A DNA stretch of 64,000 bases from Blastocystis sp. Blastoise (Eukaryota > Protista > Bigyra: Opalinata), in the NCBI GenBank assembly GCA_039096225.1, contig JBBPEB010000020.1, forward strand, positions 186,001-250,000, read 5' to 3'. The position numbers and the translations under genes were made by a program. Positions within the stretch are counted from its first letter, which is position 1; the number at the start of each line of letters is the position of its first letter. Shown in pieces: positions 1 to 64,000 of this stretch. A model generated the notes under the pieces. It had not been told where the DNA came from, ran no database searches, and saw nothing but the letters and a program-made list of their open reading frames with translations.

Positions 1-962
1 AAGAAATCAGTAGTAGTAATAGACATATAGTTATTAATATGAGTTTTAAGGGAATGTCCAAGATCTAAAGCCAATTGATTCATTTCTTCAAAGTTATTAC
101 CATGAGTAGAGCAATAGAGTTTACGTAGACTATTAATAGTAATTCCCCCGGGAATAACACGTCTCATAATATTTTTAACATATTCAGAGAAACGTTTAGG
201 AGAATAACATTCATTTTTCCCAGGTTTATGAAATAAATAACGACTTGTAGGATTTAAAGTAAATAATTCATGAAGATCTGAATTAAATTCAGAACAACAC
301 TTAAGTATACGTTCACCATAAGTTTTTGCTGTTTTATATTCAGTAACATGAATTTCATAAGAAGGATTTTCAGCAGTATTATCTTTATCTGGAATAATAA
401 ATGAAGTAGATTCAGGTTTTTCAGGTTTTTCTTTATAAATAATCAAATTACCATAATCAGCACGAGCAGGAGGCATTAAGACATATAAATCAATTAATAA
501 ACGTAACGGATCAGCAACAGAGCAAGTTTCTCTAATTTTCTTGAATTTTTCTAAAGAGCAATTGCTATTTTTCAGACATTTTAAGGTAGAATCAGTTTTA
601 GCTTTCAGATGATCAGTGTAAATATTATTAATAATAGAATACATGGATTCCCAGCTTTTTATAGTATAAAGGCGTTTCTTGATAGACTTATCTTCTTTAC
701 AGATAAACATAATTAATTCAGTAATTTTCTTCAGCATACTTAGACTAGGATTATATCTTTTACGTAAATAATCAATGAAAACCGTGGGAGTATAGATCAT
801 TTTCATAAATAATTTCTCCGGAATTGGATTAATAAATTGCTTGAAATTGCTTAATTGCGTATTTTTCCAATCATCAGTCCACTTAGCTACATGAATAATC
901 ATAAAGTAAATAGAATTATAATGCTTATTATTCATTTTTTCTACGGGAATAGTACAATTCAT
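1..962 (-). CDS. Tyrosine recombinase/integrase of PLV type, runs off the window edge (not in ORF track)
   Basis: Manual translation from ATG at 962 gives 320 open codons containing LYVLMPPARADY, YKTAKTYG, SLRKLY and LALDLGHSLKTHINNY. These match the R..K..(H/K)xxR-like..H..Y catalytic pattern. Confidence 0.88.
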   Translation of the reverse strand, partial: MNCTIPVEKMNNKHYNSIYFMIIHVAKWTDDWKNTQLSNFKQFINPIPEKLFMKMIYTPTVFIDYLRKRYNPSLSMLKKITELIMFICKEDKSIKKRLYTIKSWESMYSIINNIYTDHLKAKTDSTLKCLKNSNCSLEKFKKIRETCSVADPLRLLIDLYVLMPPARADYGNLIIYKEKPEKPESTSFIIPDKDNTAENPSYEIHVTEYKTAKTYGERILKCCSEFNSDLHELFTLNPTSRYLFHKPGKNECYSPKRFSEYVKNIMRRVIPGGITINSLRKLYCSTHGNNFEEMNQLALDLGHSLKTHINNYMSITTTDF

Positions 963-1000
963 TTTTAAAAAATCGGAAAATCAAAATAAATATGAAATCT

Positions 1001-2740
1001 TTACCAATTTATTTCTCGGAGAATTTGGTTTCTCGTTTTCTTACGTAGGGTTCGTCGACGTCGACGCATACCTGACGCGACATCGATGTTGCTTATGTCA
1101 TTTTCTTTATTTACCCAATCACCGTCGTCTTTTGGTTTCTCGGATTCTCCTTTTGATTTACTTGGTGTCGTCATATAAGAGTAGAATTGACCTAAGTAGC
1201 TCTTATTATTCCACTCATCATTCTCTTTTTTCCGTTTTGTTTCTTCTTCATCTACTTTTTTATGGGCTTCAGCTCTTCTTGCTTTAAAGCCATCTCTACG
1301 TTTTTGATTAATTTCTTCAGTATGCTTAATTCTTTCAGCACGTTCAGCACGTTTTTGTTCAATTTCAGATTTTTTATCATCACTCAATTGACTTAAAGTA
1401 TCTTTATTAAATTGTTTTTTAGGTTTAGTTACTTTACGTCTAGATTCTCCAGTTTCCACAAGATCTAATTTATTCTTTTGATCTGGTTTTTCTTCAGTTC
1501 ATTTATTGCCAGTAACTTCTCCCACGGTTTTATTATAAAGTTTTTTACCAGCATTAGTAACCATATCTGATAGACTACCTTTAATTTTCTGTAAAGTACC
1601 TTGTTTAGCTTTTTCATATTCAGCATCTTTCAGCTTTTGTTTTTGAGCTTTAATTTGGCTATTATTATATTTATCAATTTTTTTATTTTCAGCTTTAGCT
1701 AATGCGTTAAAACCATCTTTTAAATTATCAACATTGTTCATACGTTTAGTGACATTTAGCTTACCTTCATCTGTTTTTAATTCATCACTTTTTATATAAG
1801 ACTTATGAATACGTTTTTTTGTTAACTTACTCATTTTATCAGTCATACCCTCATATTGTGTATTTTTTAAAGCTTTTAAATTATTTAACATAGTTTTTGG
1901 TGCTTCAGTAGAATCTCCAAAACGAGAATAATATTCCCTTTTAATTCCATTTTTTGTATGTATGATTTTCCCATTAATATTCTTCGAAACAGTATCTAAT
2001 TTTTCTTTGATTTTCCCAGGAATATTTGTAGCATAATCAATACCATTTAATAATTTACTAGCACCTTTAACTGTTTTAGTCCCAAGGTTATAAACAGATT
2101 TTCCAGTATTATATGTTTTTGATAATAAATTTTTGGCGGTATCCCACCAACCGCTTCCTTCGGGATCTAGTATACCACAACCACTTTTATCTATTTTAAT
2201 ATATTTATTAAAATTTTCAGATGTTAATAAAGAATCATATTTATTTTCTGAATCAGGATTATTTCGTCTGAATCTAGGGTAATCAACGTTAATATATCTT
2301 TGTAGACGTTTTACGGTATGCCTGGGGATTCTGCCATCTGGCAGTAGTCCTCCTCCAGATCCCCCTGGTTCTGGCTCTTTCTCATCTTCTTCGGATTCTC
2401 CCTCTGGTTCTCCCTCTGGTTCTCCCTCTGGTTCTCCTTCTGGTTCTACTTCTGGTTCTACTTCTGGTGTTTCCGCGGGAATTTCAGCTTTTGGTTCTGG
2501 GGGTGGGGGCGGTGCTGCTTGCCTAGCATTACCCATATGATAACTACGTGTATGCATATCATTTTCTTCTTTTTCAACTAATTTAAGACTATTAGGTATA
2601 ATATCATAAATAATAGGTTGTGCTACGACTATTCTAGGCATTTTATGGGGTCTAGAATAACTTAACCATTTTTCTTTTTTCCCAAGGTTATTACAATGAA
2701 ATGAACCTGGGCATGGACTACCAATTGGTGCACTTTGCAT
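1001..2740 (-). pseudogene. Viral core-like protein paralog A (about 579 codons, one in-frame TGA at 1499-1501)
   Basis: ORFs 1499..2740 and 1001..1459 share a frame (GNK*TEEKPDQKNKLDLVETG). Contains GSG/GCG/GGG motifs, an EPEG repeat and an Arg-rich C-terminus. N-terminus resembles 62890..63633. Confidence 0.65.
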
Positions 2741-2800
2741 TTTTTTTTTAAATAAATAAAATATATAAACAAAACAAATATAAAATAAATTATTGATTAT

Positions 2801-61645: not shown

Positions 61646-62236
61646 TCAACATGGCATTACATTACCGTGACTAATTAAATATAATAAAGAATAATAAAAA
61701 CAACCATTAGCATTTTCAGACGTGCTTTGATGCTGAATTGGACTGAATACTATGTTATGACTATTTACAAAATTTCTACTAAAATTTGGTTTATTCCCAA
61801 GACTACTATAATGTTCTATTTTCTTTGGAGTATAGATAATTGCTTCAAAATGTCCAAAGTTAGGATCTGAATTACTTTGATGAAATATCATATTATATTT
61901 TGTTCTATCATTATCTATATTATTTTCAAATTCTTCATAACTATTATAATAATTAAAACCTTCTGAATTTGACTGATTTAACATATTCATTGTTGATTTT
62001 GCACGACTACAAGCCACCGCACTTGTTGGTTTATTTAAATAACCGTAGTTATATATTTGCTTTAATAAATTCATGGGAACTGATGAATATTGACTAATTT
62101 TTTGAGAAAAATCTTCGGGAGATCTAGGAGTTACTTTTCTATCAGAATCACTTATAATAGGATTATCACAATCTAAGTGTTCTTGTATAAGTTTCTCATT
62201 CTTACTTTCTTCTAAACCTCCCCCTCTCAGTTTTTT
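61646..62236 (-). CDS. Adenain/Ulp1-like maturation cysteine protease; frame open upstream of Met 62074 to the slippery site
   Basis: GHFEA (His), IEHYSSLG (usual Asp position is Ser), QHQ (oxyanion Gln), GCFYYSLLYL (Cys). Confidence 0.75.
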   Translation of the reverse strand, partial: KKLRGGGLEESKNEKLIQEHLDCDNPIISDSDRKVTPRSPEDFSQKISQYSSVPMNLLKQIYNYGYLNKPTSAVACSRAKSTMNMLNQSNSEGFNYYNSYEEFENNIDNDRTKYNMIFHQSNSDPNFGHFEAIIYTPKKIEHYSSLGNKPNFSRNFVNSHNIVFSPIQHQSTSENANGCFYYSLLYLISHGNVMPC

Positions 62237-63633
62237 GATTTATTCCCATGTTTATTTCGTTTACATTGTTGCATATATTCATAAAATGCTCTACCTTTTA
62301 ATCTTTTTTTAGGTCCAGCAGCACGTAATACACCACTAGCTTTATCTGGCTTATTTTCTATTTCAGGCGCATCTGAAGTTTTTTCAGAACTATCAGCAAT
62401 TAAATTATCATTTTGAACAATTTGCTTGGAATTTGCTGCTTTCTGTTTCTGGTAATTTTCTAAATTTTTCTTTCTTTCTTTTAATTCTTCTTTATGATAA
62501 TCACCTTCTACTTCCATTTCTTGTTTTTTTATTTCATTTTCTTCTTTCATTGTATCCCATGCTTCTTTTAATTTACCTGGTTGTGCATAATACATTATTT
62601 TAGAAGGAATTGTCTTTACTGTATTCCATATATCTGGTAAATTCTTTACTACACCCATAATTTCATCAACTACACCACCACCACGCCTAAGCCGCAAATG
62701 ATTACCATCAGGAGATTCACTAAAATCTATATATTTACGTATTTTAGACATATTCAGTGGTTTTAAGCCTGCTGCACGCATTCCTTTACGGTTATCTACC
62801 ATAAATTGTAAAGCATTAGCTATTTGTGGTGGAATTAATTTCCCTTTTTTATTTTTTGTTTTAAAGAATTTCCTTACAGATTTATCATCTTAAGAACCAC
62901 CTCTAGAAGACTCCATCGCAGTAATAACTCCTGATAAATTATTTTCTAATAATGTACCACCAAAGGTTTTATTTAATTTTCTATGAATTCCATTACCTTG
63001 ATTATTATTGGCTATCTTCTTTATTATATTTAATGAACCATTTACTATACCACCTTGTGAATCATTATTATCACCAGTTAACATATTACCTATATGTTCT
63101 ACTGATTTACGTTTTGTAGCTTTACCTATAGCTTTCATTGTATGACCTAAAGCTTTTGTAAACATACCACCACCTTTATTATTTTGTAATTTATTTAATT
63201 CACGACTATTATAAGCTAATCCTTTACCTTTTATACCTATACGATTACGTGCTTTGAAATTAGTAGGATTAATCTGTGGATCATCACTAGTATGAGCTTC
63301 TTCTTGATTATCTACAGTATCATCATATCGCCTTTTATTTATTACACCTTTTCCTACAGGTTTTGCTTGTATTAAAGCTCCTCCTGCACCTGTATTAATA
63401 CCAAATTCTTTATCACGATTAACATAAGAATTTATTTTATTTTCTATTTGATTTTTCTTTTTTAAATTTGATACTAAAAAAGATGAATTTGGACCTACTT
63501 CAAATATTAATGGATTATATTCATCTAATGTTTTTAATGGTTGAGGTTTATAAGGTCTATTCTCTTTACCAACTGCTATTTTATTTATACCAAATGCACC
63601 AGGGCTTGGCATACCTAATATACAAGTTTCCAT
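62227..63633 (-). pseudogene. Viral core-like protein paralog B (468 codons, one in-frame TAA at 62890-62892)
   Basis: The two ORFs share a frame, linked by SRGGS*DDKSVRKFFKTKNKKGKLIPPQIANALQFMVDN. Many GxG/GGG motifs. Confidence 0.7.
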
Positions 63634-63702
63634 TATTAATAAAATATATTTTTTATAACAAAACTATTCTTTTAATAATAAATAAAATATAAATAAATAA
63701 TG

Positions 63703-64000
63703 TTAATAATTTATATGTAAAATATATTCATCATATAATACACCTTTACTTCTTACATATGTATTTTGACGATAAAATGATAATACTGAAGTATATTGTA
63801 TATCTTTATCATCAAAAGATTTTTTCATTTCATTACTTCATGATATATATACACATATAGCATCTTTCATTTCTTTCACAGTTTCTAAAAATTCATTATT
63901 TGAAAATTTATCTTTACTATAACGATCAAATGTATTCATATAGGGTGGATCCATATAATATATACCCTTAGGATATTTCTTTATTATATCACGATAATCA
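63703..64000 (-). pseudogene. C-terminal part of a Dam-like (D12 class) N6-adenine DNA methyltransferase with in-frame TGA at 63838-63840 (not in ORF track)
   Basis: DYRDIIKK..IYYMDPPY..FDRYSKDKF..VYIS*SN..EYILHINY. Confidence 0.82.

Follow-up and report, generated by a model that had tools for sequence, protein, structure and literature searches.

The window described here, the whole stretch of 64,000 bases that was analysed, comes from Blastocystis sp. Blastoise contig JBBPEB010000020.1 and contains genes of a Polinton-like virus (PLV) in three separate blocks. The viral blocks, at 1-6234, 28817-34277 and 57915-64000, are gene-dense and consist of close-packed intronless open reading frames (ORFs), and both gaps between them are occupied by long, microsatellite-rich DNA, referred to below as insert 1 and insert 2. 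Microsatellites of the (TA)6+ type make up 520 bases of insert 1, 476 bases of insert 2 and none of the viral blocks. The GC content of the left viral block is 0.286 and that of the window is about 0.24. The features that define this arrangement are as follows.

1-6234, minus strand: left viral block, which crosses the window's left edge, with dense intronless ORFs and no (TA)n microsatellite
4936-6234, minus strand: 3' part of a split ORF (432 codons), in frame with 28826-29302
6226-6234, plus strand: left 9-bp target duplication of insert 1, a copy of TTTATATAT
6235-28816, no strand assigned: insert 1, 22,582 bp, with Mutator-like inverted ends, a 9-bp duplication and a decayed interior
28817-28825, plus strand: right 9-bp target duplication of insert 1, a copy of TTTATATAT
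28826-29302, minus strand: 5' part of the split ORF (159 codons), stop-free up to the end of insert 1
34270-34277, plus strand: left 8-bp target duplication of insert 2, a copy of TTTTAAAT
34278-57914, no strand assigned: insert 2, 23,637 bp, a hAT-type DNA transposon with cargo, inverted ends and an 8-bp duplication
57915-57922, plus strand: right 8-bp target duplication of insert 2, a copy of TTTTAAAT

The 9-bp and 8-bp duplications are both perfect and both are found at ends that bear inverted repeats. Because the words TTTATATAT and TTTTAAAT occur 28 and 22 times in the 64,000 bases, the chance of both matching at fixed ends set by the inverted repeats is approximately 1.5e-7. The insert limits given in the original prediction, 6235-28816 and 34278-57914, are retained here, each insert lying between duplicated words, and recomputing the excision of both inserts with one duplication each again reduces the window from 64,000 to 17,764 bp. 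The two junctions that were claimed for this excised sequence were also reproduced. At junction 1, 159 codons (29302-28826) are joined in frame to 433 codons (6234-4936), giving an ORF of 591 amino acids whose sole stop is terminal, while the other two frames meet stops at codons 9 and 2. At junction 2, stretches of 71 and 2 bp are brought together to form a spacer of 73 bp between divergent ATGs at 34206 and 57925. The case for junction 1 is made by its duplication, inverted ends and reading frame, and has no outside support. For junction 2, the homologue of the gene to its right, which encodes a 770-amino-acid protein, is the next locus tag beside the capsid gene pair in all three Blastoise copies of that pair, and more right-block genes then follow (consecutive locus tags WA158_005802-005806, 003043-003047 and 002971-002975). 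Since the middle and right blocks are adjacent in three Blastoise copies, junction 2 represents the viral family's own gene order. Contiguity of the three clusters in other copies had been proposed as a test of the reassembly; it holds for the middle and right blocks in these three copies; for the left block, searches with either half of the split ORF gave no homologue.

The earlier description of the virus as reassemblable to about 17.8 kb is sound as arithmetic, but not as a genome, as the remainder is a window-limited part that is neither intact nor uniform in ancestry. The recombinase gene lacks its stop and the methyltransferase gene lacks its start at the window edges, and 17,764 bp is thus a lower bound. 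A genome size of 17.8 kb was rejected, this value being set by the edges of the window, with the element running past both ends. The longest contigs that carry related capsid proteins cluster at 23.7-24.0 kb and 27.4-27.5 kb, and from this pile-up of relatives' contigs the genome size of the viral family is likely 24-27 kb.

The genes for the major capsid proteins lie in tandem in the middle block.

31181-32479, minus strand: major capsid protein 2, 432 amino acids, double jelly roll (predicted structure and Foldseek)
32578-34206, minus strand: major capsid protein 1, 542 amino acids, a paralogue of capsid 2, with its fold assigned by homology

The predicted double-jelly-roll fold was borne out for the 432-amino-acid capsid 2, and extends to its 542-amino-acid paralogue by homology. 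A model of capsid 2 built from 49 sequences reached a predicted local distance difference test (pLDDT) score of 84.7; a model built from only two sequences scored 40.4 and was unusable. The better model matches the Sputnik capsid (Foldseek E 4.9e-10) and the faustovirus capsid (VIA Z 18.7, root mean square deviation 4.7, 322 residues aligned), and its top match among predicted structures is an uncharacterised protein, A0A8S5L5M3, with a template modelling score of 0.63 and 14% identity. This protein is labelled 'MELD virus sp.' in an entry that gives no host. Capsid 2 shows 9-12% identity to the Sputnik and mavirus capsids, no better than to giant-virus capsids, and no more than 14% identity to any of its structural neighbours. 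Neither capsid has a Pfam or PHROG match. The two capsids are 36% identical to one another, and in a tree built from 28 of the capsid sequences, for which the tool gave a long-branch warning, capsid 1 falls in its own clade (100/100) with one Blastoise protein and two metagenome proteins. It follows that the tandem capsid duplication is old.

A profile of both capsid proteins was passed by 91 proteins among 4,600 candidates, two of the 91 being the window's own. All four named proteins among these matches are from Blastocystis sp. Blastoise, and the others are ENA, Logan or NCBI records. A pair of 529- and 433-amino-acid capsids is present three times in Blastoise under consecutive accessions, and further Blastoise capsids comprise at least 19 accessions of a 407-amino-acid form and three of a 436-amino-acid form. 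The ENA/Logan capsid clusters P0014, P0005 and P0072 have 343, 46 and 25 members, the one of 343 being a long-capsid cluster, so the viral family is common in public assemblies.

The remaining viral genes in the window are listed below.

3-962, minus strand: tyrosine recombinase, at least 320 amino acids, with its stop beyond the window (PHROG 216 integrase, E 2e-4)
1499-2740, minus strand: basic ORF, 413 amino acids, with its frame open for 165 codons beyond its TGA
2801-4093, minus strand: ORF of 430 amino acids, with about 140 more open codons upstream in frame, without an ATG
4523-4870, minus strand: ORF of 115 amino acids, from the ORF call
29345-30391, minus strand: packaging ATPase, 348 amino acids (PHROG 2666, E 3e-10; Walker A at 39, Walker B at 123)
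30490-31140, minus strand: candidate minor capsid protein, 216 amino acids, from Atlas feature leads
57925-60237, plus strand: 770-amino-acid protein, candidate extended minor capsid or fibre protein, from Blastoise homologues and Atlas leads
60360-60992, plus strand: ORF of 210 amino acids, 99% identical to WA158_005802
61139-61558, minus strand: ORF of 139 amino acids, matched by the ends of WA158_002971 and 003047
61646-62074, minus strand: candidate cysteine protease, 142 amino acids from its ATG, from residue order seen by eye
62227-63633, minus strand: one basic gene read as two ORFs (247 and 191 amino acids), with a stop at 62890-62892
63703-64000, minus strand: 3' end of an adenine methyltransferase (DPPY), with its start beyond the window (PHROG 1996, E 1.1e-5)

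The tyrosine recombinase and adenine methyltransferase that had been named from the sequence are both supported, the former by its PHROG integrase match and by the motifs PARADY at 165, SLRK at 278, LGHS at 301 and HINNY at 308, which supply the residues R, R, H and Y, and the latter by its DPPY motif and PHROG match. No Pfam recombinase match was found for the ORF at 3-962. The gene first called an A32 ATPase does encode a packaging ATPase, as judged by its PHROG match and Walker motifs; that it is of the A32 type is suggested by its context. The penton and protease labels have become candidate assignments. The 216-amino-acid protein has Atlas matches of 0.96-0.97, mostly to viral hypothetical clusters, including one set with DUF5901 on 17% of its members. 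The 770-amino-acid protein, which is 89-92% identical to Blastoise WA158_003045 and 002973, has Atlas leads of 0.93-0.94, including the Sputnik V18-19 family on 17% of members. In the candidate protease, which has no Pfam, PHROG or PDB match, the order of His, Glu, Gln and Cys as seen by eye resembles that of adenain. Gly-Gly-Gly/Gly-Ser-Gly motifs in four basic proteins (1499-2740, 4936-6234, 62227-63633 and 29345-30391) likewise resemble the cleavage sites of adenovirus-type proteases.

As originally reported, there is no polymerase or helicase ORF among the viral ORFs of the window in Pfam and PHROG searches, which also found neither pPolB nor a retroviral-type integrase in the window. Searches of PDB sequences with the ATPase, recombinase, protease and methyltransferase were unproductive, an Rfam scan gave no match, and scans of viral contigs and metagenome contigs confirmed no related loci. 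The Blastoise annotation merges three or four viral ORFs into the 772-775-amino-acid models P0177 and P0178, apparently via invented introns.

The copy of the virus in the window appears to be damaged, judging from its reading frames. Internal stops interrupt the gene at 62227-63633 and the methyltransferase, which has an in-frame TGA at 63838-63840, and two genes of the left block look broken. At 62890-62892, two Blastoise homologues read through the position of the stop with 92% identity over 446-456 amino acids. The ORF at 1499-2740 is probably a longer gene that has been broken, since its frame stays open for 165 codons after the TGA, and the ORF at 2801-4093 probably carries a 5' lesion.

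The virus is also a mosaic. Identity of the 770-amino-acid protein to P0162 is 90-100% over the first 480 residues and 70-95% over the rest, and one block differs between two Blastoise copies. In such patterns module swapping within the viral family can be seen away from the junction at insert 2.

Insert 2 includes the following features.

43914-47519, minus strand: hAT transposase in three exons, 1,129 amino acids, with GT-AG introns at 45314-45384 and 44542-44686
47691-48497, minus strand: eight tandem exon-plus-intron units of 93-110 bp, upstream of the transposase
50030-55700, minus strand: intron-bearing fragment of host UTP20, with its 3' side cut off and its upstream limit set by eye

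Both ends of insert 2 begin with CAG reading inward, match imperfectly at 15/30 bases, and carry TGTCACAAAA-like subterminal motifs in inverted orientation. The spliced transposase frame has no internal stops. Its match to the Pfam domain Dimer_Tnp_hAT (E 3.5e-4) scores 20.7 bits, just below the cut-off of 21.4, and its match to DUF4371 (E 0.0015) scores 18.9 bits, well below the cut-off of 32.1. The motifs D, D, CxxH and E, which are of catalytic type, were located in this order. A PDB sequence search with the transposase gave nothing useful, and the ORFs of insert 2 were not found in an exact-match collection. An 8-bp target duplication is a criterion for hAT elements in the accessible text of PMC8903248, and insert 2 combines such a duplication with short inverted ends bearing subterminal motifs and a DDE transposase with a C-terminal dimerisation domain. 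The repeated units at 47691-48497 are near-identical, have GT-AG introns and share the orientation of the transposase, and the last copy enters the transposase ORF in frame.

The cargo of insert 2 was identified as UTP20 by Pfam UTP20_N (E 1.4e-23), and 50365-51060 matches residues 824-1028 of human UTP20 (2,785 amino acids). No further UTP20 match was found in three frames of 49200-50120, and a PDB sequence search with two upstream UTP20-like exons gave nothing useful. As the UTP20 introns have been retained, this gene fragment was captured as DNA. That UTP20 is a native host interval between separate proviruses was ruled out, as its roughly 1,700 3' residues have no room before the transposase. 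Insert 2 also contains a perfect (TAT)137 run at 51621-52032, inside a UTP20 intron, a 600-bp AAATAG array at 40449-41047, and an 856-bp segment at 37733-38588 with an inverted repeat of at least 15 bp at its borders, which is a candidate nested non-autonomous element.

Mutator-like elements are characterised by a 9-bp target duplication together with inverted ends, and both are found at insert 1. Its termini match at 20/30 bases when inverted, and a 12-bp core, TAGAAATACCCA, has three copies at the left end and two inverted copies at the right end; allowing up to one mismatch, the rest of the window has none. Possible remnants of a Mutator transposase were seen by eye at about 7090-7290 and 12720-13020, with a 4-kb purine tract in between; four pieces of insert 1 were also searched for a transposase, with no match. 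The interior of insert 1 is far more decayed than the surrounding virus, which suggests that insert 1 arrived already large. Much of the insert consists of multi-kb purine/pyrimidine tracts (8000-12060, 19700-21800 and 25000-27100) with GC skew of up to 0.86. There are three tRNA-like sequences, at 27442-27512, 16322-16392 and about 19330-19400 (one ARAGORN tRNA-Ile call and two weaker remnants), which are possibly tRNA-derived repeats, and decayed, coding-like stretches of higher complexity at 22500-23400 and 16550-16830 have no Pfam match.

Our preferred explanation, in which we have considerable confidence, is that one integrated mosaic PLV received two independent cut-and-paste insertions and then underwent point decay. 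The original claim of a single PLV-type provirus in a protist genome is supported by the double-jelly-roll capsid, the packaging ATPase, the recombinase and the contiguity of the middle and right blocks. The virus would most likely have entered the chromosome through its own tyrosine recombinase, and at entry would already have been a mosaic of modules exchanged among relatives. A hAT element would then have inserted into the 73 bp that separate the capsid genes from the 770-amino-acid gene, and a Mutator-like element into the 591-amino-acid ORF, inactivating that gene; the relative order of these two insertions cannot be told. The hAT element is likely still self-mobile and would have acquired host UTP20 sequence as DNA. 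In the Mutator-like element a transposase can no longer be recognised, and its movement likely depended on an enzyme with its gene elsewhere. Point decay of the provirus would have followed the two insertions.

Several observations weigh against this explanation. The ends of the element, its replication gene and the host flanks all fall beyond the window. A homologue search with the 3' half of the split ORF passed one of 3,957 candidates, which was the query itself, and the 5' half had no matches among 1.84 billion representatives. No transposase match was found for insert 1 in 30 read-through frames (about 11.5 of 22.6 kb), and a second copy of insert 1 or insert 2 was not encountered, the whole assembly not having been searched. 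In a scan of 60x60 end pairs, insert 2 has a second 8-bp pair at 34268/57916, with a terminal match of 11/30 versus 15/30. Identity to Blastoise is 59% and 64% for the capsids versus 90-99% for the right block, with the step at insert 2. Finally, premature stops in such elements can stem from assembly errors, according to the accessible part of PMC10120064. That source also regards multi-copy viral elements as prone to assembly error, and mis-joined repeats could in principle have placed unrelated DNA within a viral contig; such mis-joins would not yield exact duplications at inverted-repeat ends twice, the contig carrying the window spans 532,122 bp, and we find an artefact of this kind barely credible.

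Because the step in identity coincides with insert 2, some weight must be given to the idea that the window combines a divergent provirus (left and middle blocks) with a Blastoise-like provirus (right block), each with a hAT copy inserted at the identical position of the spacer, through recombination between these copies. The word TTTTAAAT is common, occurring 8 times on each strand of the viral blocks, and the just 15/30 terminal match of insert 2 points in the same direction. However, this sequence of events requires two insertions at one base plus recombination, mosaic blocks are also present inside the 770-amino-acid gene, apart from insert 2, and the gene order over junction 2 is that of the viral family itself, making such a joining of proviruses quite improbable. 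The inserts may instead have grown in place, from small transposons that inserted first and were enlarged by nested insertions, repeat expansion and the copying in of host DNA. Their patchwork interiors, with multi-kb purine tracts, tRNA-like remnants, the inverted pair at 37733-38588 and decayed coding-like pieces, are what this would produce, as are the possible Mutator transposase remnants split by a purine tract. Yet the viral ORFs are mostly open, the right block retains 90-99% identity to Blastoise, the interior of insert 1 looks older than its arrival, and no nested element with exact inverted ends of 12 bp and a long target duplication turned up in a scan; growth in place deserves consideration, but we think it unlikely. 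Arrival of the inserts at full size is a less certain part of our reading than the two insertions themselves.

Comparison with known systems is based on the accessible portions of the papers cited. A Blastocystis MELD virus has been described with an adintovirus-like PolB and a retroviral integrase (Starrett et al. 2021, PMC8502044). It resembles the virus described here in being a midsize double-stranded DNA virus in Blastocystis data whose virion proteins are unrecognisable by sequence, but the virus in the window carries a tyrosine recombinase and a tandem pair of capsid genes, and may represent an undescribed lineage, as had first been suggested. A recombinase-bearing, twin-capsid virus was not found described in the Blastocystis literature, in a search that left most subscription papers and preprint supplements outside. 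Endogenous PLVs of protists (PMC10120064, PMC11071308) share the double-jelly-roll capsid, packaging ATPase, tyrosine recombinase, methyltransferase and 15-30 kb size class. In contrast to these, the capsids here are without Pfam or PHROG matches, have at most 14% identity to structural neighbours, and derive from an old tandem duplication. In the accessible supplement of PMC10120064, Blastocystis is present just in the list of genomes searched.

Transposon-split endogenous viruses that encode capsids are known from Cafeteria, where EMALE virophages carry Ngaro retrotransposons with an intergenic bias and, in one case, two insertions (PMC8547959). The Ngaros are retrotransposons of about 6 kb, whereas each insert here is a DNA transposon of about 23 kb and exceeds the visible virus in length. 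Insert 2 is comparable to Pack-MULEs and Pack-hATs, inverted-repeat DNA transposons with host gene fragments, the hATs among them having an 8-bp duplication (PMC8903248, PMC6431247). The literature describes these as non-autonomous plant elements, whereas insert 2 is in a protist, is 23.6 kb long and has an open transposase. The first Pack-MULE set measured 1-2 kb with none greater than 7 kb, and enlarged CACTA elements measure 16-20 kb, in the available text of a review (PMC6431247). A cargo-bearing hAT element of 23 kb in a protist was not found in searches of the literature on transposons in viruses and on large hAT/Mutator elements.

Among the microbial eukaryotes of the human gut, Blastocystis is the most common (PMC10690189, as far as accessible). 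The same text gives a GC content of 21-23% for tortoise Blastocystis, and the window GC of about 0.24 and its long introns fit this low-GC lineage; the word virus appears in it once, in a general sentence. Together with the viral homologues, this composition makes a Blastocystis of that kind the likely host. The coverage of Blastocystis DNA viruses that we found in the literature amounts to one paragraph, in the accessible part of PMC8502044. Overall, the window contains a damaged provirus from a PLV family of Blastocystis, and the two DNA transposons that split it are very large; all of these belong to kinds already known. Proviruses split by transposons have been seen before, which makes this the least surprising part, and the inserts, on which the original prediction made no comment, are the more unusual one: at 22-24 kb they are larger than the cut-and-paste elements whose sizes are given in the accessible text of PMC6431247, and a clean viral target exposes their exact ends. 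With the capsids as a marker, one can trace a virus family that occupies at least 25 loci in one Blastocystis genome and has numerous relatives in metagenomes. More tentatively, and with less than even confidence, we suggest that the twin-capsid PLV family may be widespread in Blastocystis, still recombining and also present in metagenomes, and that self-mobile hAT/Mutator vehicles of more than 22 kb may capture host genes and knock out proviruses.

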